Shown here one piece after another: positions 3,801-38,018 of a DNA stretch of 64,000 nucleotides; the first letter of the stretch is position 1; each line of letters opens with the position of its first letter. The position numbers were made by a program, and so were the translations under genes. Where the stretch lies: IMG/VR virus record IMGVR_UViG_3300050343_000218. One strand, given 5' to 3'. This DNA comes from a virus. The notes beneath the pieces are model-generated. The model had not been told where the DNA came from, made no database searches, and saw nothing but the letters and a program-made list of their open reading frames with translations.

Positions 3801-6800
3801 GCAAATGATTGAGGATGATGTCCGTTAGTGCTGCTGCTCGTAAACTTAATCTTCTTAACACCCAGAGGGAATTTAAGCCCAACAGACTCATCAAAAGTCA
3901 AGTCTTCGATGTTTTCTTCGTGGAAAGTGCCTAAGGATGGTTTTCTACCTGAAGGAATTAGAATAATACCAGAAGCATTTCCAGCATCATCTGTTACTAT
4001 ATTGTCTCCCCAAGACCTGAGGGAAGATCCAGGAATGCCAGAATAGTTACGATCTGGTACCACATACCCACCGATATTGATATTATCCAAGAAAGTATGC
4101 AATCTAGTATTAGGTTTCATCTTACGAAGATGGAACTCAACATATTGCTCTTTCACATACAGAGTGAATGAAGTAGAAAGAACTTTTTCTCCGATGGAAG
4201 TACTGCTTTGCTGTAAAGGAAGCTCTGTATTCTGAGATGCCAGATTAGAAGAACTGGTAATCTTAGACTGAATAACTTCAGCTTCTGCAGTTTGAGGAGC
4301 ATCAGAGCTTAGAGAATTGACATTGCTAAACTCGGAATCGTTACCAAGAATAGAGATCTTACTAACATCGTGAATTTGAGATAGGGCAACATCTCCATCG
4401 GTATAAACTTCCAGAGGATCTAATGTCTGGTTGTCGTTATTATTCAAAGATGGCAGACTATACTCATCGAACCACGGATCGACATTAGGAGAAAGAGCTG
4501 CAGTTCCCTTAAAGGCAAAGATAAGGAAAGGATTGACAGGAATAGTTTCTGTCGCAAAGTTGTTTTGAGCGAGAACTTTTGTGGTGAATGGTAGAGTAAC
4601 CATACCTTTATTGACCACATAACCAGACAAAAGTCTAGAAGTTGGATTTGGATCGTGCTCAAGCAAAGTAACACTAGTCTCTTTAGACTCGGGACGCATC
4701 GAACCACGAGTGAGATCAAGAGCGCACTTATAATCAACGCTGTTGATATTAGAGAGATTGAAGTTCTCGAAGTTATCGACAGCAAAACCAGACTTAAATC
4801 TATCAAGACCAGTTTGACCATCCTTAATTTGAGTGTTAAGAGCTGACTGTTCTAAGATAGACAGCATTGTATATCTCTCGACACGTTCGATTCTCTTCTC
4901 CAATTTGGAGATATCGCGCATTGTAAAACGCTTGTTTTCCACAGGGAAAACTTTGATTTTTCTGAGATTTTCAGTAAACGCAGGAATGTAAATCTTGAAG
5001 ATCTTAATAGCTTCGTCAATTGTTTGTGCAGACTGAGGATCGTTAGAACCAGCACCTTTTTTAACAATAAAGTTACCGTCTTTCTTCAAGTAAATAGTAT
5101 CAATTCTGTCAACGTAGTATTCATACTGACAAGCAAAGGTGTATGGAATACTGGCAGAGCTTTGTGTGTCAGCAGGAAGTGCTGCAGTAACACCACCACT
5201 TGTAAACACTTCAGAAACATTGGATGATGGATCCATCACACTGGCATTCAGATAACCAGGAATAAATGCTGATGTACCAACCAAAGGACGGAAGTCAATT
5301 ACATCTGCTAAAGACTTGCTGCCATATACATTAGAAGTAAATTTGGGAACTTCAGAATATGAAACACCGTTCTCGTGGAGATAAGAATCAACTGCAAAGA
5401 AGTCTCCTTCCGAATGCTTGAAATAATCAAATCCAATAACTAGGGTACCAGTAGGAGTTCTGAAACCAGGTTTTCTAATTAATGCAGATGTGTCATACAA
5501 AGAATCTCTTTGACCATCATCGAATAAGAAGTAATCTGTAATATCAATTCCACTGTTACCTAGAATAGTTCCATCTTCATCAACAGACGGTGCAATACCA
5601 GCTTGCCCTTCATAGACATAACGCAACTTGTATACATCGGAGAAAGACTTGACCTGACCAGTTGGATTGTCGTAATCATCGCCTCTAATTGGGATAATAT
5701 CGTTATCGATATCCGAAGCAATAGAAATTCTTTTCTTCTTGACAGATGTTTTTAGTTTTGGTTTTGCGTTTGCAGTCTCAATAGTACAACTGATTTTCAA
5801 CTTCATATCTGCCAGATTCAGAGCACCTGCTTGATAGAAGTAATCGGGTGGAAGCTTGATGGCAATAGTGCCAGCAGTATTTCCCTCAGAACCACTAGTG
5901 ATCGAGATCATCGAACGATCAATATAGAGAATATCTCCTTCTCTCACTAGATCACCAGTAGCACCGCCATATCTTGTAGTAGTAGCACCAGCAGTATAGA
6001 TCTCCATTACATAATCGCTTTGATTAAATGGAGCAAATTGCTGTTGACCAAAGTCAAGCTGTGCAGCAATAGTAATTTCGTTTGTGGTACCATCAACAGT
6101 AACTGATTCAATAAATTGCTTTCTTGAGAAATAAGTAATCTCAGTATTTGCATCATCCGAAAGAATCGAATAAATTTTACTGTTTGGCAGAGGAAGAACT
6201 AGACTTGATTTTCCAGAATTTTCAATTTTTGCACGAATCTTAGAAACAGTATTAGAATCGAAGTTAGCTAAGAGACGCTGTTTTAAATAAATTCTGGCAA
6301 CTGTATCGGTAGTAGCATTGCAAGCATACGCAACTTCATAACGATACGTAACACCATCAGCAGTGATTTGAATTAAATCATCTTCTTTAAGTTCATCTGC
6401 AGGACGTGCACTATAGTTAGTAGCTTCAATAAAGTCGCAATCTGTTCTGCCAGAATACTGTAGGTTGTTGGTGATAGTTTTAAATTCTGTATAATCGGTA
6501 TCTGCATACTGAATATCTGCAGAGAACGTTCTAGAACTATTACCGTGTGTCATTCCAACGGAACGAAGATCTTCCGTACCAAACGTTTGAATGACATTCT
6601 TATAAAGGAATGCTTTTACATAAGCATCTGGATCGCTAGCACTGTGTACACCACCAACATCAATAACTTCAACAATTGGAGGACTGAGGAATTTATCAGA
6701 AATCTCTCTCCTACCTAATTCGGTGAAAGTAACAGAGTGGACATAATCCTGCTGACCATCGATGCCGTCAACAGCAGTCTCTCTTCTAACAGTAGTGTAG

Positions 6801-27028: not shown

Positions 27029-30000
27029 TTAAATCCTAGTATGTAATAATGTGTGGTCTCCACGCAGATGTTGAGCAATCGTAGTCTCTTTTCTGCCTCT
27101 TTGTATATTTAGAAGCTTTGTTGAACCATCGTTCATAGACTGTTTACCGTCATAATGCGCAATTTCTCTACTATTAGCGTAATTAAATGCCGTGCCACGG
27201 TCCTCACCAACAAAAAGACGCGCAATTGCAGTAGCTGGTACTACACTAGGAGCGGAAAATGTCAAAGATGCACCCGCTTGAGTTGTATCAGACTCGTATG
27301 TCATCAAAATCGTGCGCTCAGTATTGATAGAATACGTTCCAGCGTCCACTGCATCGGTCATTGTTATTTGATTATTGTTAATATCAATCGCTGCAATACT
27401 AATAACGCCGCCACCAGATCCTTTAACTCCTTCAACGCGCAGTCCAGGTGCAACATCCTCAATTTCTGCATTAAAAAGTATTTCGGTAACTGTAACAACA
27501 GTTGTTCCGTCAGCAGTAATATTCATTGCAACTCCAGGAATCAATCTTAAAACCTCATTGTATGACATTGCACCTCCATCTAGACTGATACGAACACCAA
27601 CAAATAGTTTTTCGTAGAAGTCCATTTCAGCAAATCCAACATTTTGGATAAAACGACTATTAGCAGTGATATCTCCAGTACCAGTAATCTCTGGATTAGG
27701 CAGATCGATAGTTACAACTGGTTCTTGAACATAACCCTTTCCAGGATTGATTATATTAATTGATGTAACACGACCTTGAGTAACAATAGCTTCTACAGTT
27801 GGTGCTCTTCCATCTTCCAAATCAGGAGCATTGAATGAAACGTTAGGTGTATTCATATACCCAAGTCCAATATTGATTGGTCTAACTTCTTCTACACCTT
27901 TACCTTCAATATCATAATTGTTCATTTCGATATAACCATACTCAGGAAGATCCGCTGTATCAAAATCTACTACTCTTAACTCACTTTCCTCTGTATTCAT
28001 AAACTCTGACAGCTGTGCCATTAGAGTATTGTTATCAGGATTCCCCTGTGCATCAACAGCTGCTATTAAATTGTCTCTATGTGTGCTCCAATCAGACTCA
28101 ATGGTCAAGTCAGTATTGAACGTCTTAGAGAATGCCCCTCCAAAAGAAGGGTTTCCAACTGTAGTAGTTGTTTCTGATTCTGGTGTTCCTGTATCTCCTG
28201 GTACATTAGGATCAGGTGGCACCGCAGGATTTGTGGTAGTCTGCGTATATGATGGTGTAGTACAAACCCAGATACCTGTTATTGTAATAGGTAAAACTCT
28301 TTCTCCTGTTCTATGGGGATCGTATCTAAAGATAGACCACTTAAGTCGCTCGGATGGTGGCGGAACACTTCTGAATCCGTGAGTATACATCTCTTGAGCT
28401 ATTTCCACATAAGATACAGTGGGAACAACTGTTTTCATATCATTAAACGCAAGATCCATATAATCTTGTGCAGCGATTGCATAATCAAATGCATCACCTA
28501 GTTCGCAAAAGAATGTCTTGGACTCTTTAAACATATCGCCACTGTCATTATAATTCGGTTCCAGCTTCTTATTACCGATATCTTCCTCGTCCTCAACGCA
28601 TTCAACAATCTCTTTATAATTGTTATCGATCTCTGCGCTCTTACTCAGTCCTCTAGTATCAATTTTAAATTTATCTTTATCTAAAGGTACATCACAAATG
28701 ACGAAATCTTTGATAGCTTCAAAGTAACCCTCAAACCCATCTTTCAATCCCTTCTCAACACATCTATTTCTTTTATTTTTAAGTGGAAGACCCTCACCAC
28801 CTATCTCCTCTCCAATTATAATTGTCTTTGTTTGAGTGCCACTTTCTCCCTTCTGAGTCCAGGTCTCGCCAGCAATCTCGATAGTACCTAATGCAGTTTG
28901 AGCAGTGTCTGGATTATCATCCCACTGCAGCTCTAGTTCAATCTCAACACGTCCTTCAGTTGCAATTGCTAGATTTAATCCGCCACTTCCTCTCGCTTCT
29001 CGATTCGGGTCAAATGCAAACTTAGCTGATCCACCGTATACAGTTCTGATGAAGAAACTAGCATTAGCATCATCTCCGTCATTATCTAATAAACGAATAG
29101 CAGTTCCACTCTGATCGAGCATCTTTGGTTCGCCACCAGTAGCTACTGCAGCATAACCTGAATCTAAGTTTGCTTCTGCTAAACCTCTAAACGTAATTGG
29201 TGTAAAGACAGCATTCTCTAGTGTTGCATCAGTACCTAATAGCGCTACAGCTTTAAACACACCACTGTTAACAGAGTTTGCTCTTGTACTCTGCCTACTA
29301 CACATATTCTCTTTTGTGCCCCAAGTATCTGTATGTTGATCAGACACTGCTTTCATAAAAGGTTTTAGCTCACAGTCAATAGGACTATCTTTACCATAAC
29401 TTTTTGTCCATCCATCTAATTGATCGATGTATTCTGTAACGTCCTCACAAACGTCCAGGAGCACGTCGCATTTCGGTGGTAGGTACTTTGTGTACCCAAC
29501 CTTCTTTGGATAGGTATAGAACCCGCTTATGGTACCAATCAGAGGTACTTGCGATGCAACAAACGTTGGTACTCCCAGAAATGATAATCCAATTGATGAT
29601 TGAGCTTCAACATCATTGTATCCTGAGATGCACTCGGCGGTCGCCCCGCTGGAAGACCCTGTTACGTTATGCCCAGGAAATCCACCACTCGCTGTACCTT
29701 CCTCAAACTCAATAATATGCAAAGCATTCGATTCATTATACCTATGCCAATCCTTTACAGTAGCAGTCGCACCATTTGCTCCTGTCACTGTCTCCCCTGG
29801 TTTAAATTCTCCAGCGGGATTGCGAACAGCAACGCGCTCCGTAAAGCTATCGCATATCCATAGCGTATAGTATTGCTCGTCCCCTGTTACATTTATTTTT
29901 ACGGGAGAATACTGCTGACAATTATCCTCAGTCGTCTGTGCTCCTAATGTTGTCAGATTAAAATAATACTCGAAATACTGTTCGTCCGTATTAATACCAA

Positions 30001-30160
30001 GACGTGGAATAGTTTCTTCGGACGAAAAGAATCCTCTACCGAGAAATCCAAACCCTCCGCCAATTGGTGATCCATATGGTGACGTGATTGTTAAACCACC
30101 CTCAGCACCATATGGACTCGATCCATATGTAAATCCAGGTCTACCTGTACCGTACGTCAT
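27029..30160 (-). CDS. Uncharacterised virion structural protein (1043 aa)
   Basis: Contains gp7-like modules (INIGLGYMNTPNV, IINPGKGYVQEPVVTI, terminal IQRGRKETTIAQHLRGD) and a WDDNPDTAQTALGTIEI motif. Abuts the PAAR gene. Confidence 0.8.
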   Translation of the reverse strand: MTYGTGRPGFTYGSSPYGAEGGLTITSPYGSPIGGGFGFLGRGFFSSEETIPRLGINTDEQYFEYYFNLTTLGAQTTEDNCQQYSPVKINVTGDEQYYTLWICDSFTERVAVRNPAGEFKPGETVTGANGATATVKDWHRYNESNALHIIEFEEGTASGGFPGHNVTGSSSGATAECISGYNDVEAQSSIGLSFLGVPTFVASQVPLIGTISGFYTYPKKVGYTKYLPPKCDVLLDVCEDVTEYIDQLDGWTKSYGKDSPIDCELKPFMKAVSDQHTDTWGTKENMCSRQSTRANSVNSGVFKAVALLGTDATLENAVFTPITFRGLAEANLDSGYAAVATGGEPKMLDQSGTAIRLLDNDGDDANASFFIRTVYGGSAKFAFDPNREARGSGGLNLAIATEGRVEIELELQWDDNPDTAQTALGTIEIAGETWTQKGESGTQTKTIIIGEEIGGEGLPLKNKRNRCVEKGLKDGFEGYFEAIKDFVICDVPLDKDKFKIDTRGLSKSAEIDNNYKEIVECVEDEEDIGNKKLEPNYNDSGDMFKESKTFFCELGDAFDYAIAAQDYMDLAFNDMKTVVPTVSYVEIAQEMYTHGFRSVPPPSERLKWSIFRYDPHRTGERVLPITITGIWVCTTPSYTQTTTNPAVPPDPNVPGDTGTPESETTTTVGNPSFGGAFSKTFNTDLTIESDWSTHRDNLIAAVDAQGNPDNNTLMAQLSEFMNTEESELRVVDFDTADLPEYGYIEMNNYDIEGKGVEEVRPINIGLGYMNTPNVSFNAPDLEDGRAPTVEAIVTQGRVTSINIINPGKGYVQEPVVTIDLPNPEITGTGDITANSRFIQNVGFAEMDFYEKLFVGVRISLDGGAMSYNEVLRLIPGVAMNITADGTTVVTVTEILFNAEIEDVAPGLRVEGVKGSGGGVISIAAIDINNNQITMTDAVDAGTYSINTERTILMTYESDTTQAGASLTFSAPSVVPATAIARLFVGEDRGTAFNYANSREIAHYDGKQSMNDGSTKLLNIQRGRKETTIAQHLRGDHTLLHTRI

Positions 30161-30360
30161 AACCCTATTTCTTGCCTCAGTTCAATTGCTTGTACACGCT
30201 TCTCTAAATCCTCTAAGTACTTCCCTAACGGTTCGTGCTCAGTACGCCCTGGACGCTTAAAGAAAAACTTTGACCCTGACATAGCTCCAGGTACTTGCTT
30301 GATCTCTTCTTCAAGTTGCTTGACTCTTGCTTCAAGTTCCTTGATATAATTTCTCATCAT
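30157..30360 (-). CDS. Hypothetical coiled-coil protein (probable start 30360; the ORF track extends it to 30465)
   Basis: MMRNYIKELEARVKQLEEEIK... is preceded by AGG. ATGA-type overlap with the next gene. Confidence 0.7.
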   Translation of the reverse strand: MMRNYIKELEARVKQLEEEIKQVPGAMSGSKFFFKRPGRTEHEPLGKYLEDLEKRVQAIELRQEIGL

Positions 30361-30379
30361 CCTAGGATCATCTGTGATC

Positions 30380-30592
30380 TCAGGTGGCGTTTGGATTGAC
30401 TTTGACGACTCTTGCATTTGGTTTCGTTTTTTTGATGGATAGCAGATTTCTCTCTGCGGTTTCAATTGACCTGAAATGATGTGCTAGCTCAGGGTCGGGA
30501 CTCCAACTAGAATCCTCCTTCCAATATATCATACCCTTCACAAAATTACCAACGTGTGGTGCTGCTATCGTCCAATACTGTTTACGTGCCAT
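30380..30592 (-). CDS. Hypothetical protein (70 aa), first gene of the late baseplate operon
   Basis: MARKQYWTIAAPHVGNFVKGMIYWK... lies downstream of the CTAAATA site. Confidence 0.7.
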   Translation of the reverse strand: MARKQYWTIAAPHVGNFVKGMIYWKEDSSWSPDPELAHHFRSIETAERNLLSIKKTKPNARVVKVNPNAT

Positions 30593-30649
30593 TCCAAAAA
30601 ACCTCTAAGGGCGTTTTTTACTTGGGAAAAATATTTTTTATTCCTTCAA

Positions 30650-30656
30650 TATTTAG
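30650..30656 (-). promoter_or_regulatory. Late promoter CTAAATA
   Basis: Plus strand tatttag in the non-coding gap heading the structural operon. Confidence 0.7.
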
Positions 30657-30700
30657 CTGTCGAATTCGGTTCGTTATAGATTGCCCTACACGAATTCTCT

Positions 30701-30737
30701 ATACAAACCCCCCCTTTAATTAACAGTTAGCGGGGGG
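30701..30737 (-). terminator. Probable terminator ending the early-gene block
   Basis: Minus strand CCCCCC-N17-GGGGGGG followed by TTTGTAT, just after the last small early gene. The loop is long, so this is tentative. Confidence 0.45.
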
Positions 30738-30763
30738 ACAGTTGTTGTTACTTAGTGCTGTAC

Positions 30764-30898
30764 CTATTTGCAATACTTAGCGTCTACCTGGCAGAACTGC
30801 TCCATTCTCGCATCCTGCATTTCAGAGACAGAGGTGATGACGTTGGTGCCGATGACGGTTCCGAATGCCAGGACAGAGAAGAGGAGGATGATTCGCAT
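30764..30898 (-). CDS. Small membrane/exported early protein (44 aa)
   Basis: MRIILLFSVLAFGTVIGTNVITSVSEMQDARMEQFCQVDAKYCK has a hydrophobic N-terminus and its own promoter at 30920-30977. Confidence 0.75.
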   Translation of the reverse strand: MRIILLFSVLAFGTVIGTNVITSVSEMQDARMEQFCQVDAKYCK

Positions 30899-30919
30899 TT
30901 GGTTGCTTTGCTTTCTAGA

Positions 30920-30977
30920 ATTCTACAGGGTCAGGGGTCAGTCCCTGTCGCTGATGTTCCACCTAGTGAATTGGCAC
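30920..30977 (-). promoter_or_regulatory. Early promoter (-10 TAGAAT plus dyad)
   Basis: -10 at 30920-30925. Dyad GTTCCA-N10-TGGCAC at 30956-30977. Confidence 0.75.
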
Positions 30978-31120
30978 TCCTCTACGGGTTGACCGTCTCG
31001 GAAGGCAGCACGGATCAGAGCACGGCGGCGTGATTCTTCCTTCTCTTGATCAAGGCAGCGTTGAGCGATGGAAGCGAGTCGATCGGATGATGCCAAGATG
31101 CCGTTGCCGTAGTTTTTCAT
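30938..31120 (-). CDS. Hypothetical early protein (probable start 31120, 60 aa)
   Basis: MKNYGNGILASSDRLASIAQRCLDQEKEESRRR... has an A/C-rich leader and TAGACT at 31144-31149. The longer ORF-track start overlaps the nuclease gene. Confidence 0.65.
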   Translation of the reverse strand: MKNYGNGILASSDRLASIAQRCLDQEKEESRRRALIRAAFRDGQPVEECQFTRWNISDRD

Positions 31121-31157
31121 TTGGTTGCTTTGCTGTTGTGAATAGTCTACCATATCT

Positions 31158-31691
31158 TCAGACGATGCGGCGTCCGTGGTAACGGATCTCTGATGATGTG
31201 AGCGTGGCACCGATGCGGGGATCTTTGGCGTTGCCGTTGCGCTTGCCTTCGTACTGCTTGGCAACCTTAGGCAGGAGCAGAGACAGCACGGTGTCTGAAT
31301 CCATCACCCAGATCTCAGCAACACGACACCCCTCATACCTGGCATAATAGTGGCGAGCATAGCAACCAATCTTATGGTCGATCAGATATGCCTCTTGATC
31401 CTCCCAACTAGGTTGGACGCTGATGCCGTTATACGTGGCACTGATCGTCTTGCCTATGGTAGACTTGTACTCCACAGGGGTGCCGTCTGCCTCGTAGGCA
31501 TCAGCGCCGCTGTAGCTGTCTGCTACCGTGTGACCTAGTAGGCACGCCATATGGATTTCACGACTGCGAGCATATGACATCGGGTCGCCTGCCTTCAGTT
31601 CGTCCGCTGCTTTGTACAGGGCATCGAATGCCTCTAGGTACTGCTTCTGAGCTTCGGTGAGGGTGACGCCGTTGGTTGTGCTGTAGGTCAT
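31158..31691 (-). CDS. PvuII-like PD-(D/E)xK restriction-type endonuclease
   Basis: GHTVADSYSGADAYEADGTPVEYKST aligns with PvuII [25 protein letters not shown] (D-x9-E-x-K). YARYEGCRVAEIW and KDPRIG...HGRRIV also match the PvuII C-terminus as I recall it. Confidence 0.75.
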   Translation of the reverse strand: MTYSTTNGVTLTEAQKQYLEAFDALYKAADELKAGDPMSYARSREIHMACLLGHTVADSYSGADAYEADGTPVEYKSTIGKTISATYNGISVQPSWEDQEAYLIDHKIGCYARHYYARYEGCRVAEIWVMDSDTVLSLLLPKVAKQYEGKRNGNAKDPRIGATLTSSEIRYHGRRIV

Positions 31692-31719
31692 CGGTTGCTT
31701 TGTTTGGTTGCTTGTGCTT

Positions 31720-31761
31720 ACAATAGTCGATCAGGGGGGAGAGTCATCCCCCTGTGTGACA
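31720..31761 (-). promoter_or_regulatory. Early promoter (-10 TATTGT plus proximal half-site)
   Basis: -10 at 31720-31725 and GTGACA at 31756-31761, the same 36-nt register as the other promoters. Confidence 0.65.
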
Positions 31762-31763
31762 GT

Positions 31764-31985
31764 TCAGAGTTCGGCTAGCATCTCGTCCATCTCATCCGTG
31801 TCCACATCGTCAGACAACCAGCTGATGCCGTCCCCTGTGATATACTCGCCATACTCATCAATCCAACGCTTTGCCCACTTGCGATACCCTAGATTCTGGT
31901 TTGCTTTGGCGTGACGGTAGATCGTCTCATCGTTGCCGATCCACAGAGCGACGTTCCAAGTGGCGTGGTTTGCCCATCCGTTCAT
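31764..31985 (-). CDS. Conserved phage early hypothetical protein (73 aa)
   Basis: NGWANHATWNVALWIGND motif, recurrent in phage early genes. Confidence 0.8.
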   Translation of the reverse strand: MNGWANHATWNVALWIGNDETIYRHAKANQNLGYRKWAKRWIDEYGEYITGDGISWLSDDVDTDEMDEMLAEL

Positions 31986-32013
31986 TTGGTTTCCTCGTTT
32001 GGTTGTTGAGTAA

Positions 32014-32071
32014 AGTCTACAGGGTCAGGGGTAGGAATCTAGTAGCTTTGTGGCAGTTCGCTACGTGTCCC
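32014..32071 (-). promoter_or_regulatory. Early promoter (-10 TAGACT plus dyad)
   Basis: -10 at 32014-32019. GTGGCA-N10-TGTCCC at 32050-32071. Confidence 0.75.
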
Positions 32072-32239
32072 ATATGGACCGCCCATCGCTGGACCGTCTC
32101 CCTCTTCCTTGGGTCGTACCATAGCAGCGGCAGAATGGAGAGAATCCGATGCTGTGATCTGGATCCCCTCCCTGATGCTTTCATTAGTAACGACAGCACC
32201 TGCAGCGAAAGCGGCAGCGTATGAAAGAATTTTAAGCAT
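32039..32239 (-). CDS. Small early protein with a hydrophobic N-terminus (66 aa)
   Basis: MLKILSYAAAFAAGAVVTNES..., preceded by a promoter and A/C-rich leader. Confidence 0.7.
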   Translation of the reverse strand: MLKILSYAAAFAAGAVVTNESIREGIQITASDSLHSAAAMVRPKEEGDGPAMGGPYGTRSELPQSY

Positions 32240-32266
32240 TTGGGTTTGGTTTGTTTGCTTGTGTGT

Positions 32267-32324
32267 ATACTAGACGATCATAGGCAGTCGTCTATAGCTT
32301 TAAAGACACTTCGCACATCGTCCA
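32267..32324 (-). promoter_or_regulatory. Early promoter (-10 TAGTAT plus degenerate dyad)
   Basis: -10 at 32267-32272. AAGACA-N10-CGTCCA at 32303-32324, inside the upstream gene. Confidence 0.55.
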
Positions 32325-32490
32325 TCTCATCCGAGATATCGTCACGATCAAACAAAGCATCCTCAATCAATGCCTCCAATGATGCATCCCTGCTGGCAGT
32401 GTCAAAGATCTCACCAGCACAATCCTGAATTTCGTTCCACATAATTTTGTCGTAATGAAGGGCAATTGAACAGGGGTCGGAATAGGTCAC
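32278..32490 (-). CDS. Acidic hypothetical early protein (70 aa)
   Basis: ORF with a 4-nt overlap to the upstream gene, co-oriented with its neighbours. Confidence 0.7.
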   Translation of the reverse strand: MTYSDPCSIALHYDKIMWNEIQDCAGEIFDTASRDASLEALIEDALFDRDDISDEMDDVRSVFKAIDDCL

Positions 32491-32684
32491 AGAATGCCTA
32501 GGGCAACTGCTTCCATTACGTCGCCATACTCTCCGACGATTTCACCGAAGGAATCACGGATGTATGCATACTTACCAGATTCATCGTGCATAGCGTAGCA
32601 GATGTCCATAGCACGGTCGATGTCCGTGGTGAACTCGGTCTCCCCTAGTGCAGGGCAGTTGATTTCGTAGGTTTCGTTTGTCAT
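32487..32684 (-). CDS. Hypothetical early protein (probable start 32684, apparently leaderless)
   Basis: MTNETYEINCPALGETEFTTDIDRAMDICY... The ATG is 6 nt downstream of the -10 box CATACT. Confidence 0.75.
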   Translation of the reverse strand: MTNETYEINCPALGETEFTTDIDRAMDICYAMHDESGKYAYIRDSFGEIVGEYGDVMEAVALGIL

Positions 32685-32690
32685 ACAGAC

Positions 32691-32748
32691 AGTATGGCAG
32701 ATTTTGGGGCGTTTAGGGGAAAAGGGTTGACACTTCTTCAACTGTCAC
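32691..32748 (-). promoter_or_regulatory. Early promoter (-10 CATACT plus dyad)
   Basis: -10 at 32691-32696. TTGACA-N10-TGTCAC at 32727-32748. Confidence 0.75.
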
Positions 32749-32952
32749 AGCGGCGCTGAATTCGGCGTTGTAACGTGAGACAATGTAAGATAGATCTTTT
32801 GAGTCTAGATCTTTGTACATAGTGTGGAGGGTGTCGATGTAAGGTTCGCCTGGTACTTCTTTCATTCGATGTACAACAAGCTCCTTAATCAGACTGTCTC
32901 TAGTGATAGTCATTAGAGTGAATGTGTGATGGGGATATTTAGTCCCCATCAT
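32713..32952 (-). CDS. Hypothetical early protein (79 aa)
   Basis: ORF tiles between its neighbours. The true start may be the internal MTITRD. Confidence 0.65.
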   Translation of the reverse strand: MMGTKYPHHTFTLMTITRDSLIKELVVHRMKEVPGEPYIDTLHTMYKDLDSKDLSYIVSRYNAEFSAAVTVEEVSTLFP

Positions 32953-32959
32953 AATGTGA

Positions 32960-33280
32960 TCAAGCGAAGAGATAACCAGACTCGAAAGGTTTCACTTCGT
33001 TGTTGTCACGAATGAACCACTGAAAGTCTTTCTGAAAGACACCATCAGTGAGTGCATCACAGAACTCATTGATGATAACATTCAAACGAGACTTGGTGGT
33101 GTTAGACTGCCAACCGCCATCAAAGATGCGAACATTGTTATCAGTCACGGTTGCAATGTGATTGCCGTGAAGATAAACTAGTGAAGCATTGTTGTCGTTA
33201 GTGAAAACCTCGGTGTTAGCAGACTTCCAGCACTTGTTTGCTTGGATGGCGGCGAGCATTTGGGATTCGATCTTACGCAT
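32960..33280 (-). CDS. Conserved cyanophage early protein (106 aa)
   Basis: MRKIESQM..AI...W.SANTEV...VYLHGNHIA...FDGGWQSNTTKSRLN pattern. Confidence 0.85.
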   Translation of the reverse strand: MRKIESQMLAAIQANKCWKSANTEVFTNDNNASLVYLHGNHIATVTDNNVRIFDGGWQSNTTKSRLNVIINEFCDALTDGVFQKDFQWFIRDNNEVKPFESGYLFA

Positions 33281-33309
33281 TTGGTGTCGGAGTTGTTTGA
33301 CTTGAGATT

Positions 33310-33368
33310 AGTATGGCACCGATCAGGGTGCTTTGCAAGCGATAGTGGACACTAGGTCAACTGTCCAC
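33310..33368 (-). promoter_or_regulatory. Early promoter (-35 TTGCAA, 17 nt, -10 CATACT, perfect dyad)
   Basis: GTGGACA-N10-TGTCCAC at 33345-33368. Confidence 0.85.
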
Positions 33369-33389
33369 GGGCGGCTGAATCAGTTTGTG

Positions 33390-33680
33390 TTACTTAGTCT
33401 CCACTAATTCCTGCTGATATGACATAAATTGCTCCTCTGTTGCTTCATCCACTGCCTCTTGAATCACTTGATAGATGTAATCAACGTTGCCTACATCATC
33501 AAAGATACGTGCAATCAGTGCAGGATTTTCTACCTGTTGATCATAATCAACCTCACCATCTTCATCCTTTACGTGTATATCTTCCTTGGTATAAATCCAC
33601 GCTGCACATTCTGCATCCTCTCCCTGTTCTTTGATCATCGATGATACTCGGTCTTGAAGTTGCTTGAGAGTGTAGTTCAA
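33390..33680 (-). CDS. Acidic hypothetical early protein (96 aa, TTG start)
   Basis: YTLKQLQDRVSSMIKEQGEDAECAAWIYTKED..., behind its own promoter. Confidence 0.75.
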   Translation of the reverse strand: MNYTLKQLQDRVSSMIKEQGEDAECAAWIYTKEDIHVKDEDGEVDYDQQVENPALIARIFDDVGNVDYIYQVIQEAVDEATEEQFMSYQQELVETK

Positions 33681-33707
33681 AATGATACGAATTCATTTGA
33701 TGTATAC

Positions 33708-33766
33708 ACTATGGCATAAAAAAAGGGGTCTTGCAACCCCTAGTGGACAGCTTAGAAACTGTCACA
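33708..33766 (-). promoter_or_regulatory. Early promoter (-35 TTGCAA, 17 nt, -10 CATAGT, dyad)
   Basis: GTGGACA-N10-TGTCACA at 33743-33766. Confidence 0.85.
33715..33741 (-). terminator. Intrinsic terminator overlapping the -35 box of the next promoter
   Basis: Minus strand AGGGG-TTGCAAGA-CCCCT followed by a T run. Confidence 0.7.
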
Positions 33767-33816
33767 TCAAATAGTTTTCCACAGGTTTCTGATGTAATGT
33801 GGAGCACTGTGACGGT

Positions 33817-34215
33817 CTAGTCACCGACCACAACAGCATCAGGTGGCATTGTGCTACCTGTGAAACCGTCCCAACCCTTCTCAGTCATATCATCAGTGAG
33901 CTCTAGAATGTAATCTAGTTTTAGATTAGTCATACTAACTCTTTGATTAATAAACTTACCAATTGATACATCTTCTCTTTGGATTGTATCTTCTTCTGTT
34001 TCTAAAATGTTATCTTCTTCATCTCTATCTTGTTCAGCTTCTAGTTTACCACAGAGTTGCATAAAAGCTGACTGAAATTCATCTAAGTCTTCACATTTAT
34101 ATCCATATTGCTTACTAGTATTGCTTTTGTATACTAGTTTAACAACAGAACTATCGTAGTCTAGTTCCATATATTCAATAGCTGAACTAGGTAGTTCTTC
34201 GTACTTAGTAGTCAT
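33817..34215 (-). CDS. KTSC-like domain protein with an acidic C-terminus (132 aa)
   Basis: SSAIEYMELDYDSSVVKLVYKSNTSKQYGY resembles the KTSC pattern SSxIxxxxYDxxxxxLxVxFxxxxxYxY. Confidence 0.6.
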   Translation of the reverse strand: MTTKYEELPSSAIEYMELDYDSSVVKLVYKSNTSKQYGYKCEDLDEFQSAFMQLCGKLEAEQDRDEEDNILETEEDTIQREDVSIGKFINQRVSMTNLKLDYILELTDDMTEKGWDGFTGSTMPPDAVVVGD

Positions 34216-34289
34216 AGTAGTCTTAGTTATAGTAGTATTATACCATACTATAGGTATAGTATACGTGTAGTGTGGTTAAAGTTTAAAAA

Positions 34290-34384
34290 GTAAGATTTTA
34301 ACTTTTTGAACTTTCTTAATTTCTTATCTTTTTGAGTTTTTTGACTTTTTGGGATTTTGAACTTTCTGAGTTTCTTGACTTTCG
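34290..34384. repeat. Strand-asymmetric imperfect ~9-nt tandem repeat tract
   Basis: Minus strand ...AAAGTCAAG AAACTCAGA AAGTTCAAA ATCCCAAAA AGTCAAAAA ACTCAAAAA GATAAGAAA TTAAGAAAG TTCAAAAAG..., in a non-coding gap. Confidence 0.7.
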
Positions 34385-34486
34385 GTAGATTGCGTGCTAA
34401 GACCCCAACAGTCCCGCAGCTAACCGTAGATAACTCATAGTATACGAAGAATAGAACACACTAGGTATGTTTATTTAACCATTTAG

Positions 34487-34519
34487 TTTTCCACAGGTTT
34501 TTCCACAACCTTTTCCACA
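34487..34519 (+). promoter_or_regulatory. Three tandem DnaA-box-like 9-mers TTTTCCACA
   Basis: Exact copies start at 34487, 34499 and 34511 (12-nt period). A fourth is at 33775. Confidence 0.7.
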
Positions 34520-34556
34520 GGCACTGTATAGTAACTGTGGAGACACTAGGTGGTGA

Positions 34557-34748
34557 CTAGGGAGCTGCTGTGCGGAGCACTACAGTATATTGTTCTAATG
34601 ATTGGTTAATGTTAGAGTATTTGGTTTGTATGTAAGGTGAGACGAATAGTTGTTTGAATGTAGTAGTTTTAATGATACGTATGTCATTAGTGGATAGTTT
34701 ACCCCATCTACAGTAAGCGAAGAGTAGTGTATAAGCTGTTAGTATCAT
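34557..34748 (-). CDS. Hypothetical protein (63 aa)
   Basis: ATGA overlap with the upstream ORF. No recognisable motif. Confidence 0.45.
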   Translation of the reverse strand: MILTAYTLLFAYCRWGKLSTNDIRIIKTTTFKQLFVSPYIQTKYSNINQSLEQYTVVLRTAAP

Positions 34749-34969
34749 TTGTATTGATCTAACACTTGAGCAATGATTTTAATAGACTCTTGAAACTCTT
34801 CAGCATCTTGTCCACCTTGTACGATGTATGCTAGTTCTTCTAGTGCATCATCAACAGTTAGTCTATTGTTTAACGTTTCACGGTAGTGTGCAACAGCGAG
34901 CATTTCTTCGTGAGTCATTGCCTTATAGGTTGATGGTGTCATTATACAGGAGATGGGGGTGAGTGTCAA
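34745..34969 (-). CDS. Hypothetical protein (74 aa)
   Basis: Tiles in a minus-strand operon. Confidence 0.65.
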   Translation of the reverse strand: MTLTPISCIMTPSTYKAMTHEEMLAVAHYRETLNNRLTVDDALEELAYIVQGGQDAEEFQESIKIIAQVLDQYK

Positions 34970-35224
34970 CTAGTATCTAGTAGGGATATTCTTAGATTGT
35001 GTCACTTGTTCTTGTGTCACAGTGTTGTCTAGATCAGTAGGGCGTTGACCTAAGATGAGAGACTGTACGACCTTCGCCTTTTTAATGTTATTATCCATTG
35101 CGTTAATAGATCTAGTGATGCACTCATTGATATCATCATACATTTCAGTTGATGTTGATAGAGGATCACAGATGTATGCATCTAGGATAATTTGTAGTTC
35201 AGCTTTCAGTTGTTGGGAAGACAT
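34970..35224 (-). CDS. Hypothetical protein (84 aa)
   Basis: Tiles in a minus-strand operon. Confidence 0.65.
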   Translation of the reverse strand: MSSQQLKAELQIILDAYICDPLSTSTEMYDDINECITRSINAMDNNIKKAKVVQSLILGQRPTDLDNTVTQEQVTQSKNIPTRY

Positions 35225-35654
35225 AGTATTTGTAATGGGTGAAAGGTTTAGGGTGATGTAAGGTTAGGAACTTAATAGCGTGTTCTTCACATTGAAACCA
35301 AGCTATACGTTTTTCAGACTTAAGTTCAACTCTATAAGGGAAGGTAGGATGAGGGAATAGTTTAAGTTCCCGTGATCTAGTAGGTTTAAACTCTAGTTTC
35401 TTTACCTTCGCTTTCCGAGTTGTACCAGAACTCTTCTTTGTCTTTTTCTGTTGCTGTGGTGATGTTAGGGTTGATAGGTTTTGGTTTAAGGACTGCTGTG
35501 TTTTTACCTTGGGTGCTGGTTTGGTTTTGTTCGAGGTAGTTTTTGATGAGGGCTTTAAAGTCTTCTTTGGTGTAGGTGTTGAGGATGCTTTCTTTCGGGT
35601 CTGTTTCATCCCAGTCGATGTTGAAGCTTCCGTCTTCGTTTTGCGTGACATCAA
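35199..35654 (-). CDS. Basic low-complexity protein (up to 151 aa) overlapping the 90-aa gene in another frame
   Basis: The C-terminal FPHPTFPYRVELKSEKRIAWFQCEEHAIKFL looks like a real cyanophage domain. The only ATG codons (35651 and one shortly after) lie inside the 35386-35658 gene. Confidence 0.55.
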   Translation of the reverse strand: MMSRKTKTEASTSTGMKQTRKKASSTPTPKKTLKPSSKTTSNKTKPAPKVKTQQSLNQNLSTLTSPQQQKKTKKSSGTTRKAKVKKLEFKPTRSRELKLFPHPTFPYRVELKSEKRIAWFQCEEHAIKFLTLHHPKPFTHYKYYVFPTTES

Positions 35655-35658
35655 TCAT
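35386..35658 (-). CDS. Conserved cyanophage hypothetical protein (90 aa)
   Basis: MIDVTQNEDGSFNIDWDETDPKESILN.YTKEDF pattern. Confidence 0.7.
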   Translation of the reverse strand: MIDVTQNEDGSFNIDWDETDPKESILNTYTKEDFKALIKNYLEQNQTSTQGKNTAVLKPKPINPNITTATEKDKEEFWYNSESEGKETRV

Positions 35659-35695
35659 TGCCTAGTTAAATAGATGTAATTGAACGTATTCTACT

Positions 35696-35872
35696 ATGAG
35701 TTGTCGAAATTGCCAAGAGGTTGACTTGGATGATCTTGAAGATCAGATGTTTGCTCATTTGATAACAGAAATGGAAGAAGGCTTTACAGTGAAGCTAGAT
35801 GATGGTACAATCATTATCTTCGATAGTTTTGCGGAAGCAAAGGAGTTTATTTTTGATGGCGGATTACGCTAG
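35696..35872 (+). CDS. Small acidic protein (58 aa)
   Basis: Manual translation MSCRNCQEVDLDDLEDQMFAHLITEMEEGFTVKLDDGTIIIFDSFAEAKEFIFDGGLR. It follows TTAAATA at about 35666 and overlaps the oxygenase start. Confidence 0.65.
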   Translation: MSCRNCQEVDLDDLEDQMFAHLITEMEEGFTVKLDDGTIIIFDSFAEAKEFIFDGGLR

Positions 35873-36545
35873 AGAAGTAATAGAACATCGTACTGAGCAC
35901 GATACATTAATTAGAGAGTATCCTAATCATATACCACCACAAGTGTGTGATATGATTTGTGACTACACTGATCGCATTGAAGCAGGTCAGGAGCTTGGTG
36001 ATATCCATCGAGATAATGATACCTTCATCCGTAAAGATATCCAGTATTGGATGACTGAAGATTGCAATCCACGGTTACGTAATAGTATACTGAAAGGATG
36101 GGGTAAACTAATGAAGAATCAATATCTAAATGAGTTTACACAGCTTGGATTGAATGATTTCTGGATGAGTGCAGTTAAGATTCAGAAGACATATGCTGGT
36201 GGTGGATTTCATCGTTGGCACTATGATAACAATGGATTTGTAGTAATGGAACGTGAGTTTGTCATTACTTCATACCTTAATGATGTACATAATGGTGGAG
36301 AGACAGAGTTTCTTTATCAAGGTGTACGTGTGAAACCAGAGAAGGGAAAGACTGTAGTATTTCCAGCTGGTTATACACATATGCATAGAGGAAATCCCCC
36401 AATCGGTGGTACAAAATACATTGCAACAACGTGGGGGAATAGAATTCCTCGCATTGATGATAGAACAGAAGACCCAAGTATGGGTCATTATATCCGTCCT
36501 GCTGATCATATCATTGATCAGTATGGTGCTGGTGGATACGGTTAG
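35856..36545 (+). CDS. 2OG-Fe(II) oxygenase (probable start 35856)
   Basis: GGGFHRWHYD...YLNDVHNGGETEF...FPAGYTHMHRGNPP..GTKYIATTW gives the HxD...H facial triad. Confidence 0.9.
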   Translation: MADYAREVIEHRTEHDTLIREYPNHIPPQVCDMICDYTDRIEAGQELGDIHRDNDTFIRKDIQYWMTEDCNPRLRNSILKGWGKLMKNQYLNEFTQLGLNDFWMSAVKIQKTYAGGGFHRWHYDNNGFVVMEREFVITSYLNDVHNGGETEFLYQGVRVKPEKGKTVVFPAGYTHMHRGNPPIGGTKYIATTWGNRIPRIDDRTEDPSMGHYIRPADHIIDQYGAGGYG

Positions 36546-36724
36546 AAATCCGTATCATATTTACTATAGAGATAAGCTAGCACCTCATCTCTATATTCTA
36601 GTAACTCGTTATAACACACTTGGTTGTGTGCACATTGACGAAGTGCAGAATCTGGTTTGTATACTGATTCAATAAACAAACCCAATGCACGTCTACGTTT
36701 ATCTTCCTTACATTCATCAGTCAT
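36542..36724 (-). CDS. Conserved cyanophage hypothetical protein (60 aa)
   Basis: RRRALGLFIESVYKPDSALRQCAHNQ.CYNELLEYR pattern. Confidence 0.75.
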   Translation of the reverse strand: MTDECKEDKRRRALGLFIESVYKPDSALRQCAHNQVCYNELLEYRDEVLAYLYSKYDTDF

Positions 36725-37120
36725 TTATGATCTCCTCTTGTCAAATAAGTGTATTGATTGCTCGCCATCAAGATAAGCTAAGATAGCATTGGTGCGATTT
36801 AAGTGATCCTGAAAGTAATCCTGTAAACTGTACAATCTTGTCCTGAGATCCGACACGAAGTCGTATGGAGTAAACTCTGTATCGTTTGTAATGTACTCCA
36901 ACAGTATGTCATCCAGTGAACCCATCAGGTGCTCACGATATTTATCCTTCGGTGTTACTGATTCGTCCGAGTTCGTGTCCAAGGTAGAGGTAGAGGTCTC
37001 CACACTTGGTGTGATGACTACGCTCGATGGTTTTTTGTTGGGACTTTGAGAGGAACTGGAGGGCATCTGTGAGGACTTTAATTTCATTGGAGGAAAGAAG
37101 GACTGGTTGACGCATAACAA
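36725..37120 (-). CDS. Hypothetical protein (131 aa) with a Ser/Thr-rich N-terminus
   Basis: ORF tiles between its neighbours. Confidence 0.7.
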   Translation of the reverse strand: MLCVNQSFFPPMKLKSSQMPSSSSQSPNKKPSSVVITPSVETSTSTLDTNSDESVTPKDKYREHLMGSLDDILLEYITNDTEFTPYDFVSDLRTRLYSLQDYFQDHLNRTNAILAYLDGEQSIHLFDKRRS

Positions 37121-37136
37121 TAATAAGTCAATGACA

Positions 37137-37277
37137 TTATAACATAGAAGCTTCTATAATGTCTAACATCTCTCCACACTCATCAGCAGTGTCCTCATCA
37201 GCTAACACTGCATAATCCTCAACTGCATCAGCGAGGATTTCCATCTGGACCTTAGTTAGTGTGATAGTATATTCCAT
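37137..37277 (-). CDS. Small acidic protein (46 aa)
   Basis: MEYTITLTKVQMEILADAVEDYAVLADEDTADECGEMLDIIEASML. TGATG overlap with the upstream gene. Confidence 0.7.
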   Translation of the reverse strand: MEYTITLTKVQMEILADAVEDYAVLADEDTADECGEMLDIIEASML

Positions 37278-37531
37278 CAACCCACTGCCATTGGAGTGTA
37301 CTCAGAGCGAGGCATCTGAGACATATTGTATCCATTAACTGTAGCACCGTTAGCGATGCGTGTCTCCCACTCGTTACGTGCTGTGAGTGATGTCACTGTG
37401 CTGTAGGACTTGAGACCGTTAGCATTCCAGGTGACACGCTTCTGGAAACGCTTGACGATCACGTCATCACCTTCAGCGATGAATGCCTCAGGGAAGAAAT
37501 CAACTGTGCAGACGTTGTTGGAGATTTGCAT
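37277..37531 (-). CDS. Conserved cyanophage early protein (84 aa)
   Basis: MQISN...VDFFPEAFIA...VKRFQKRVTW pattern, with its own promoter. Confidence 0.8.
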   Translation of the reverse strand: MQISNNVCTVDFFPEAFIAEGDDVIVKRFQKRVTWNANGLKSYSTVTSLTARNEWETRIANGATVNGYNMSQMPRSEYTPMAVG

Positions 37532-37558
37532 TTGAGTGGGGTTGTTTGGTATGTACTT

Positions 37559-37616
37559 ATTATAGCGGGTCAGCGGGTCAGCGCAGCCCGTGTTGGGACA
37601 CTTCGACAGGTGTCAT
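37559..37616 (-). promoter_or_regulatory. Early promoter (-10 TATAAT plus dyad)
   Basis: -10 at 37559-37564. GGGACA-N10-TGTCAT at 37595-37616. Confidence 0.8.
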
Positions 37617-37814
37617 AGCCTGGACAGTGAGACGCTTCCATCCACGCACGTCGCGAATGCCTTCGATCATCTCGCTCACAACACGCTCCAGTTGACGCTC
37701 ACGACCCTTGACAGTGGTGCACTTGCCACACTTGCGGAACAGTTCGCTCACAGTGCTGTCTTCGTTGGTGATGAAGATGTGGTAGTGTGTGTGCTTGACT
37801 TGGGTGACTGCCAT
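37578..37814 (-). CDS. Hypothetical early protein (78 aa)
   Basis: ORF directly behind the promoter at 37837. Confidence 0.75.
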   Translation of the reverse strand: MAVTQVKHTHYHIFITNEDSTVSELFRKCGKCTTVKGRERQLERVVSEMIEGIRDVRGWKRLTVQAMTPVEVSQHGLR

Positions 37815-37836
37815 TGGGTGCCTTGCTGATGTACTT

Positions 37837-37894
37837 ATTATAGCGTGTGGAGTGGATCAGACCATACGGACTGTGACACTATGAGTACCGTCCT
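37837..37894 (-). promoter_or_regulatory. Early promoter (-10 TATAAT plus dyad)
   Basis: -10 at 37837-37842. GTGACA-N10-CGTCCT at 37873-37894. Confidence 0.75.
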
Positions 37895-38018
37895 TATCCA
37901 GCTGACGGCAGAGCAATTCGGAATGTATGCTACGTGCCAACTGCTGGTCAAGCGTCTCGTAGCACACTTCACCCTCTTCAGGAGTGACAGCATTGATCTG
38001 ATAGTAGGAACCGATCAT
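37857..38018 (-). CDS. Small early protein (53 aa)
   Basis: MIGSYYQINAVTPEEGEVCYETLDQQLARSIHSELLCRQLDKDGTHSVTVRMV. TGATG coupling with the upstream gene. Confidence 0.7.
   Translation of the reverse strand: MIGSYYQINAVTPEEGEVCYETLDQQLARSIHSELLCRQLDKDGTHSVTVRMV

Follow-up and report, generated by a model that had tools for sequence, protein, structure and literature searches.

A conserved cassette of T4-like cyanophages places host-type DnaA boxes downstream of a predicted antisense promoter, possibly as a docking module at a transcript-primed origin

What might an ordered array of sites for the bacterial replication initiator DnaA be doing in the genome of a T4-like cyanophage? The question is raised by one gap between genes in a viral contig (IMG/VR record IMGVR_UViG_3300050343_000218), of which we analyzed 64,000 nucleotides on one strand (the window). 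Genes next to the gap are 87–95% identical to those of Synechococcus phages S-MbCM6 and ACG-2014d, and one uncultured IMG/VR contig is identical across the region; by sequence, the source is a T4-like cyanomyovirus (Kyanoviridae) with marine Synechococcus as its host. An earlier reading of the window, made from its letters alone (the sequence-only reading), had drawn attention to clustered DnaA boxes in the gap and had proposed either an origin fired by the host initiator or a sink for host DnaA. We find that the boxes lie in a single-copy cassette, shared by many Kyanoviridae, in which they follow a predicted promoter module and an AT-rich block. The feature is real and conserved, and it is very probably functional. 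As a plausible account, somewhat short of probable, we propose that the array serves as an accessory DnaA docking module of this control cassette, which would itself be located at a transcript-primed origin.

The DnaA-box consensus is TT(A/T)TNCACA, and its cyanobacterial form, TTTTCCACA, is present in four perfect copies within 33775–34519. An exact word search placed these copies on the + strand at 33775, 34487, 34499, and 34511, and found one more + strand copy at 4935 and none on the − strand of the whole window. The count of 5 compares with 0.89 expected and was reached in 0 of 100 shuffles; the copy at 4935, inside an ORF (open reading frame) of 2749 aa, is consistent with the chance level. 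Tandem Repeats Finder reported a 12-nt array of 3.0 copies at 34487–34522, and both searches agree with the sequence-only reading, which had listed three copies at a 12-nt period and a fourth at 33775. Much of the rest of that description also held. The 17-mer TAGTTTTCCACAGGTTT is the same at 33772 and 34484, and the inverted TGTGGAG noted after both clusters corresponds to partial inverted copies of the box, TGTGGAGCA at 33798–33806 after 14 nt and TGTGGAGAC at 34536–34544 after 16 nt, each matching the inverted box at 7/9 positions. The 341-bp interval 34216–34556, described as the largest non-coding gap, is the biggest ORF-free gap of the window whether ORFs of at least 40 or at least 50 aa are counted. 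An adjacent AT-rich tract and 9-nt repeat tract had been described as well; we recovered the repeats at 34296–34383, with a period of 8–9 nt, and the lowest-stability 100 bp of the whole 64-kb window lies within the gap, at 34228–34327. Coding on the − strand makes up 92–93% of the window by a crude ORF map, and the genes flanking the gap are all on that strand, so the boxes are antisense to them. We considered genome-wide over-representation of the 9-mer as a further signal and discarded it, because a reversed-word control overstated the enrichment and an order-3 Markov model gives a modest 1.9–6.5x expectation in four complete relatives. The signal in the 9-mer is its clustering, not its copy number.

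Read along the strand that carries TTTTCCACA, the cassette consists of a promoter, a variable stretch of 40–130 nt, the AT-rich block, two boxes 12 nt apart, a variable third position, and an edge block. We collected examples in two ways. A first set of 28 cassettes was fetched via the boxes and is hence biased towards box carriers; in 22 of them, the array is preceded by a module with the consensus TTGAC(A/T)-N14-TG-N-TA(A/G)(A/G)(A/C)(C/T), an element that had no place in the sequence-only account. We read this module as a promoter because its −35 (a perfect one), the TG, and the TA of its −10 are invariant while its spacer varies, and for the window we infer an antisense promoter at 34375–34403 with a predicted start at ~34407–34411, directed towards the boxes. 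The promoter core GYGCTAAGMC has one copy each in Syn1, S-PM2, and Syn9. A second set was retrieved by the promoter module alone and comprised 82 non-redundant cassettes, in which boxes were scanned 300 nt downstream and 60 nt upstream of the module. At least one perfect box was present downstream in 40 of the 82, at 43–152 nt from the module (35 of these had at least two), and no cassette had a box in the 60 nt upstream. Of 39 pairs of neighboring boxes in the same orientation, 32 are spaced by 12 nt; of 16 pairs in opposite orientations, 15 are convergent, most often with 14–15 nt between the boxes. GGT is the 3-nt spacer in 22 out of 32 tandem phage pairs. Box variants with a single mismatch differ mostly at position 1 or 3; among the five that differ at position 3, four have A in place of T, which yields the E. 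coli consensus.

For alignment and consensus folding we used 14 cassettes, and the AT-rich block was additionally compared across 78. Boxes 1 and 2 are invariant among the aligned relatives, and the third position holds a third box, an inverted box, or none. Twelve of the 14 sequences have either 137 or 147 nt between the −10 and the cassette edge; this step of one helical turn (10 nt) argues for an architecture at the level of DNA. As a separate observation, the offsets of the first box form series 10 nt apart (43/53/83, 65/75, 107/117), the steps arising from inserted units of 10 nt, for example CACATTACNN. The complete gap could not be aligned to cultured phages; the 60 nt around the boxes (34466–34525) have 84–92% identity to unannotated gaps of Syn1, S-RIM44, S-CAM3, S-CAM1, S-RIM32, Sf-CH3, Sf-FP1, and S-H38. 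Identity is ~80% over a longer stretch in Sf-CH11 and 81% in S-CREM1, and the matches in S-PM2 and S-MbCM6 are weaker. Overall, many Kyanoviridae carry the array core at the equivalent point of the genome with ~90% conservation; Syn9 and S-MbCM6 have reduced versions. The syntenic place of the core is a block of small early genes, beside a 2OG-Fe(II) oxygenase gene and just ahead of a small conserved gene. Each of ten complete phage genomes has one main cluster of 2–3 boxes, and secondary sites lie 0.6–1 kb from the main array, along the direction of the genes, in Syn1, S-RIM44, and S-CREM1. The survey of relatives that the sequence-only reading had called for thus finds the array conserved and syntenic.

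Sequence comparisons suggest that host DnaA binds these boxes, which we regard as very likely. The 9-mer matches the published cyanobacterial DnaA box, as the sequence-only reading had said, and that box is bound in vitro by DnaA domain IV (PMC4674748). A phage-encoded DnaA was dismissed: a Pfam family search gave no DnaA family match in Syn1 or S-PM2, and tblastn with host DnaA returned no DnaA from the window or four phage genomes, just weak P-loop similarity. Synechococcus WH7803, MIT S9451, and MIT S9507 have one dnaA each. Domain IV of WH7803 DnaA aligns to the DnaA–DNA complexes 1J1V, 8BTG, and 3PVP and retains the RQ, LP.IG, and DHTTV motifs; like the M. tuberculosis protein, it has Tyr at the position that we take to be E. 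coli His439. In a sample of 301 cyanobacterial genomes, tandem pairs of the box at 12-nt spacing occurred in 28 genomes and pairs of the reversed control word in 0. The spacer is GGT in 16 of 32 chromosomal matches, and in four of five genomes checked the pair belongs to an oriC box cluster of the usual kind, 150–430 bp upstream of dnaN. The phage array shares this oriC grammar, which makes coincidence with another protein's site unlikely. The grammar is that of large-genome cyanobacteria, not of the four marine Synechococcus hosts or the sampled small picocyanobacterial genomes: no tandem pair was found in the small picocyanobacterial genomes of the sample, so that the phage cassette differs in this respect from picocyanobacterial hosts in the genomes searched, and perfect boxes in the four marine Synechococcus genomes number 14–28 per 2.4–3.3 Mb, not above the control word. 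Because perfect boxes are not enriched there and the region upstream of dnaN in WH7803 holds imperfect boxes only, we rejected the idea that the array is a copy of the host origin.

Could a protein other than DnaA, from phage or host, be the binder, with the DnaA-box match a coincidence? The repeats would then serve an unrecognized phage initiator or regulator as iterons, in line with a proposal for T4 oriE, whose 12-nt iterons have no identified binder (PMC3016281). The place occupied by the boxes does vary in this direction, in that box-less cassettes retain the promoter and AT-rich block and fill the slot with repeats of another kind. Most frequent among these is TTATTGATTCTCAA, which 11 of the 82 cassettes contain in both direct and inverted orientation and which has to be recognized by some factor other than DnaA. 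Where the boxes are present, coincidence seems improbable to us, given an exact match to the box of the host phylum (one among 262,144 possible 9-mers), a 12-nt spacing and GGT spacer that are the same as in chromosomal dnaN-proximal arrays, and position-3 variants that mostly restore the E. coli consensus. A search for a companion gene likewise speaks against a dedicated phage binder: no gene within 3.5 kb was specific to box-bearing cassettes (at best 8 of 35), in a test confounded by relatedness. In IMG/VR cassettes, TTATTGATTCTCAA is accompanied by a partial inverted copy ~12 nt away and by another direct copy, and its core, ATTGATTCTCAAT, is a near-palindrome.

The numbers of boxes bear on the second proposal of the sequence-only reading, a datA-like sink in which the sites would titrate host DnaA as phage genomes multiply and thereby shut off host initiation. 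Perfect boxes are rare in the hosts, the boxes upstream of dnaN in WH7803 are all imperfect, and each phage genome adds 4–12 perfect boxes, so that tens of copies would presumably exceed the host sites. The rest of the evidence makes a sink quite improbable. Three to four sites per genome are few, genome-wide enrichment is modest, half of the cassettes have no box, and the reduced version in Syn9 has few or none. A sink has no need of fixed neighbors, yet the array is always in one cassette, downstream of one promoter. E. coli datA is a high-affinity box cluster away from the chromosomal origin that has no fixed promoter context and needs IHF; the cassette boxes, unlike datA, are bound to one promoter cassette. 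Of the original pair of proposals, the common ground is supported, in that the array is conserved, has cyanobacterial grammar, and belongs to phages with no DnaA of their own; a pure sink fares poorly, as it leaves the constant promoter context unexplained. Among host boxes, we also noted that WH7803 has two perfect convergent DnaA boxes 35 nt apart at ~1.819 Mb, far from dnaN and dnaA and kept in MIT S9451 and MIT S9507, and that a second conserved marine Synechococcus locus reads TTTTTCACA-gc-TTTTCCACA with an inverted box 293 bp off; from their sequences, both are candidates for loci that are regulated by DnaA or that control it.

Any account of the cassette has to accommodate five facts: its single copy, a host-type antisense promoter, easily melted AT-rich DNA, a slot that always follows the promoter and contains high-affinity sites for a tightly binding protein of changeable identity and orientation, and a secondary site that brackets the first downstream gene. 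The best fit to all five is a promoter-coupled element in which a bound protein meets the antisense transcript. In the mechanism that we propose, the three phased copies of TTTTCCACA and their weak inverted partners would dock the host initiator DnaA, and host sigma70 RNA polymerase would initiate at the antisense promoter. Transcription would cross the AT-rich block at 34464–34486 and run into a short DnaA oligomer on 34487–34519, which would stall or restrict the transcript beside easily melted DNA. The stalled transcript could then give rise to a persistent RNA–DNA hybrid to be extended by the phage replisome, as at T4 oriF and oriG, and the first round of phage replication would be coupled to the competence of the host for replication. 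The main array may in addition loop to the secondary site at 33775–33806. The sites, their spacing and conservation, their constant place after the promoter-like module, and the grammar that they share with cyanobacterial oriC arrays are seen in the sequences; binding of DnaA, activity of the promoter, and the formation of an R-loop or of any start of replication at the cassette are what we infer.

Comparison with T4 bears directly on this scheme. The sequence-only reading had treated T4 origins as DnaA-independent R-loop origins, which proved too simple: oriF and oriG each consist of a promoter and a downstream unwinding element and are R-loop primed, and oriE consists of an early promoter and 12-nt iterons (PMC3016281). 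The cassette resembles oriE in having a promoter and 12-nt repeats, a likeness of layout only, and it differs in that the T4 iterons are not DnaA boxes. T4 and the cyanophages belong to the same virus lineage and have the same type of replisome; the oriF and oriG promoters require MotA, which cyanophages are not known to have. Plasmid-type replicons offer another comparison. P1 oriR, F, pSC101, and RK2 combine AT-rich DNA and repeats of their own with a small number of host DnaA boxes, and each codes for a Rep initiator to which its iterons correspond. Unlike these replicons, box-bearing cassettes yielded no Rep-like gene or iteron set nearby.

A closer precedent for host boxes beside a phage promoter is lambda pO, which has footprinted DnaA boxes downstream and whose activity modulates initiation at the nearby ori-lambda (PMC3985674). 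Like the cassette, pO/oop combines a promoter antisense to its neighbors with host DnaA boxes downstream, in a phage without its own DnaA. The sequences are unrelated, and lambda has two box-like sites, as opposed to a phased perfect array, as well as its own initiator O with iterons, a type of gene that we did not recognize near the cassette. In addition, oop RNA is short and ends at a terminator; in the window, no + strand terminator-like site was found from 34403 to 35548.

The pO/oop precedent equally suggests a DnaA-dependent transcription switch or insulator with no role as an origin, a reading that we consider possible but doubtful and that comes second to the origin version. Here, a DnaA roadblock would limit antisense RNA into the upstream early genes or keep early sense transcripts off the divergent promoters, and early gene expression would track the DnaA state of the host. 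Several features suit such a switch: boxes are confined to the downstream side of the promoter module over the scanned range, their free orientation and the other repeats in the box-less slot fit a generic block by a bound protein, and a perfect sigma70 promoter at 34969–34941 sends sense transcription into the cassette with no terminator between. The two footprinted boxes downstream of pO are a precedent (PMC3985674), and DnaA is described as both an activator and a repressor in the abstract of PMC8203912. A short antisense RNA would need a terminator, which is missing before 35548, and a switch alone leaves the AT-rich block, the melted tract, and the single-copy status unexplained. The two readings are not exclusive; in lambda, transcription control and origin function are linked.

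Several results weigh against DnaA docking at a transcript-primed origin. Of the 82 promoter-retrieved cassettes, 42 have no box at all; with about half of the cassettes lacking DnaA boxes, DnaA cannot be essential to the core function of the cassette. T4-type phages, moreover, bring their own helicase loading and require no DnaA. An R-loop origin would have a promoter that reads into an AT-rich unwinding element. The cassette offers a candidate for each, in its conserved −35 with extended −10 and in the AT-rich block beyond them, but the block is just 23 nt long and the −10 hexamer TAAGAC lacks the final T that is otherwise strongly conserved. A consensus promoter scan did not call the antisense module. 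Ranked by low duplex stability, the 20-bp segment from 34458, over the AT-rich block, is at the 96th percentile of the window; the specific sequence conservation of the block suggests a binding site rather than a mere melting element.

Tests for an oriC-type origin also went partly against the proposal. The basal unwinding system of bacterial oriC has co-oriented tandem DnaA boxes no more than 3 bp apart (PMC8287927), and boxes 1–2 and 2–3 are separated by 3-nt spacers. DnaA-trios, by the criterion of at least three trios within ~16 bp of the boxes, were absent: in the 14 cassettes, both strands were scanned for 40 nt to each side, and no run of three [TA]A[GA] was found. B. subtilis incC is inactivated when its boxes are reversed (PMC6669920), and in S-MbCM6 and Syn9 the boxes as a group point the other way with respect to the promoter and AT-rich block. 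The absence of trios and of a fixed orientation makes oriC-type, DnaA-driven unwinding unlikely. The cassette is like a cyanobacterial oriC in its 9-mer, tandem 12-nt spacing, and preferred GGT spacer, and unlike it in having no DnaA-trios, no fixed orientation to the AT-rich block, and far fewer boxes; of the oriC-like layout in the sequence-only reading, the tandem boxes and the adjacent easily melted DNA are upheld, and the absence of trios and of a fixed orientation speaks against it. GC skew, a check suggested in that reading, has no inflection at the cassette in Syn1, S-PM2, S-CAM1, or Syn9. This result decides nothing about an origin, because skew tracks the coding strand and 83–89% of the genome codes on one strand.

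If the gap acted as RNA, its repeats would be stems or protein-binding motifs of a structured non-coding transcript. The boxes can pair with their inverted copies, single-sequence folds of the window are slightly better than shuffles (z −2.3 and −2.6), and wobble-compatible changes in CCGCA, near the predicted start, and TGCGG, in the edge block, were seen by eye in a few sequences. The comparative evidence runs the other way and makes a structured RNA very improbable. RNAalifold on the 14 cassettes gave practically no consensus on the + strand (−1.0 kcal/mol) and, on the − strand, two weak helices with almost no covariation (−7.2 kcal/mol). Both arms of the box pairing retain the box sequence and do not co-vary, and the direct repeats without an inverted partner in Syn1, S-H38, and S-CAM1 cannot form stems. 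The CCGCA/TGCGG long-range pairing, identified by eye, is valid in some sequences and was rejected on its failure in S-CAM1, S-PM2, and L013. There was no Rfam 15 match at E up to 1 in 30000–38000, and ARAGORN found no tRNA or tmRNA in the window. In the S-PM2 record (AJ630128, 19177–19333), tRNA-Leu and tRNA-Asn are annotated over the cassette and its DnaA boxes, with more tRNAs within the oxygenase gene; these annotations look spurious.

T4-like cyanophages are among the most abundant viruses of the sea, and to our knowledge, including the literature that we searched, no replication origin has been mapped for them. Full-text searches with the box sequence, with cyanophage and 'DnaA box', and with cyanophage and 'origin of replication' found no paper describing a DnaA-box cassette. 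Other phages are known to recruit host DnaA to a control or origin region; what would be new is such borrowing in a lineage where it was not expected, and the cassette would be the first case known to us of host DnaA sites being used by a T4-type phage, which has its own replisome and helicase loader. A single-copy, gene-free cassette with perfect host-initiator sites is a precise place to look for an origin, and it suggests a direct molecular link from phage development to the replication competence of the host. The modular slot, with DnaA boxes or other repeats depending on lineage, is a natural experiment on the role of the bound protein. A broader proposal, which we put forward as a speculation with less than an even chance of being right and rather unlikely as it stands, is that T4-like cyanophages share one dedicated early origin, in which a host-type promoter in antisense direction and an AT-rich block are joined by an exchangeable slot for a tightly bound protein. 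In about half of the lineages, host DnaA would fill the slot and fix where the primer transcript stalls and forms an R-loop, and replication would be gated by the state of the host initiator, and so by light and growth.

Table 1. Features of the cassette and its immediate surroundings in the window.
Feature	Position	Strand	Details
Predicted sigma70-like promoter module, antisense	34375–34403	+	TTGACT (−35), 17-nt spacer, TGc-TAAGAC (extended −10)
Conserved AT-rich block GGTATGTTTATTTAACCATTTAG	34464–34486	+	Touches T end of box 1; columns almost invariant (14 and 78 cassettes)
DnaA box 1 TTTTCCACA	34487–34495	+	Word search, Tandem Repeats Finder
DnaA box 2 TTTTCCACA	34499–34507	+	12 nt past box 1, spacer GGT
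DnaA box 3 TTTTCCACA	34511–34519	+	Spacer ACC
Weak inverted box GTCTCCACA	34536–34544	−	7/9; convergent with box 3 over 16 nt
Edge block GACTAGGGAGCTGCTGTGCGGAG	34555–34577		Conserved in 14 cassettes; contains stop codon of ORF 34557–34748
Small ORF, 63 aa	34557–34748	−	Upstream of cassette; antisense promoter aims into it
Repeat tract, 8–9-nt period	34296–34383		T-rich on + strand; repeated TTGAC/TTGAG/TTGAA words
Predicted gene-strand promoter, extended −10 TGgTATAAT	34237–34245	−	21 nt ahead of ATG at 34215
First gene downstream of cassette, 132 aa, phrog_4357, function not assigned	33817–34215	−	Bracketed by both box sites
Secondary site	33775–33806		Perfect box 33775–33783, 14-nt gap, weak inverted box 33798–33806 (TGCTCCACA on − strand)
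Intrinsic-terminator-like hairpin and T-run	33724–33741	−	Closes transcription unit begun in cassette

The remaining features surround the cassette (Table 1). The antisense and gene-strand promoters form a back-to-back pair, which is also present in S-MbCM6 and Syn9. Between the two lies the repeat tract, which overlaps the least stable DNA of the window and has counterparts in Syn1, S-RIM44, Sf-CH11, S-CAM1, and S-PM2; in Syn1 and S-RIM44 the tract is inside the 5′ leader of the downstream gene, and the S-PM2 version is ~170 bp long. On the + strand, the tract is a series of −35-like words (TTGACT, TTGAGT, TTGAAC). The first gene downstream has homologs in the corresponding position of Syn1, S-PM2, S-CAM1, Sf-CH11, and S-CAM3. 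It matched no Pfam family at cut-off, and its assignment as a KTSC-domain protein was not established, as one member only matched, with E 0.02. The secondary site sits between the stop codon of this gene at 33817 and the terminator.

At the other end of the cassette, the edge block is part of a small gene in S-CAM1, Sf-CH11, and S-PM2, where it encodes the C-terminal residues (V/L)R.GTP*, and is non-coding in Syn1. We considered GACTAGGGAGCTGCTGTGCGGAG as a separate regulatory motif and rejected it, as it is single-copy and partly the C-terminus of this upstream gene. The small ORF of the window had no family match and, apart from the edge block, no homology to the small gene of relatives. The 9-mer GCCTCTGCG occurs 5 times in Syn1 (both strands), 35x the order-3 Markov expectation, with one copy in the edge block of the cassette. 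Farther upstream, the TTGACA-17-TATAAT promoter at 34941–34969 (− strand) overlaps the listed start of ORF 34745–34969, whose true start is probably the ATG near 34917, giving ~57 aa. The 2OG-Fe(II) oxygenase gene (PF13640) at 35799–36545 is on the + strand, opposing nearly all other genes of the window, and its orientation is the reverse of that in Syn1, S-CAM1, Sf-CH11, and S-PM2. Six other IMG/VR viral contigs contain multi-copy arrays of TTTTCCACAGGGTTTTCCACA followed by TTTTCCACATGA, which in three of the contigs lie within ~350 nt of one end of the fetched stretch; with neither the cyanophage promoter nor the AT-rich block, these arrays are, by their sequence, a different element with the same tandem grammar.

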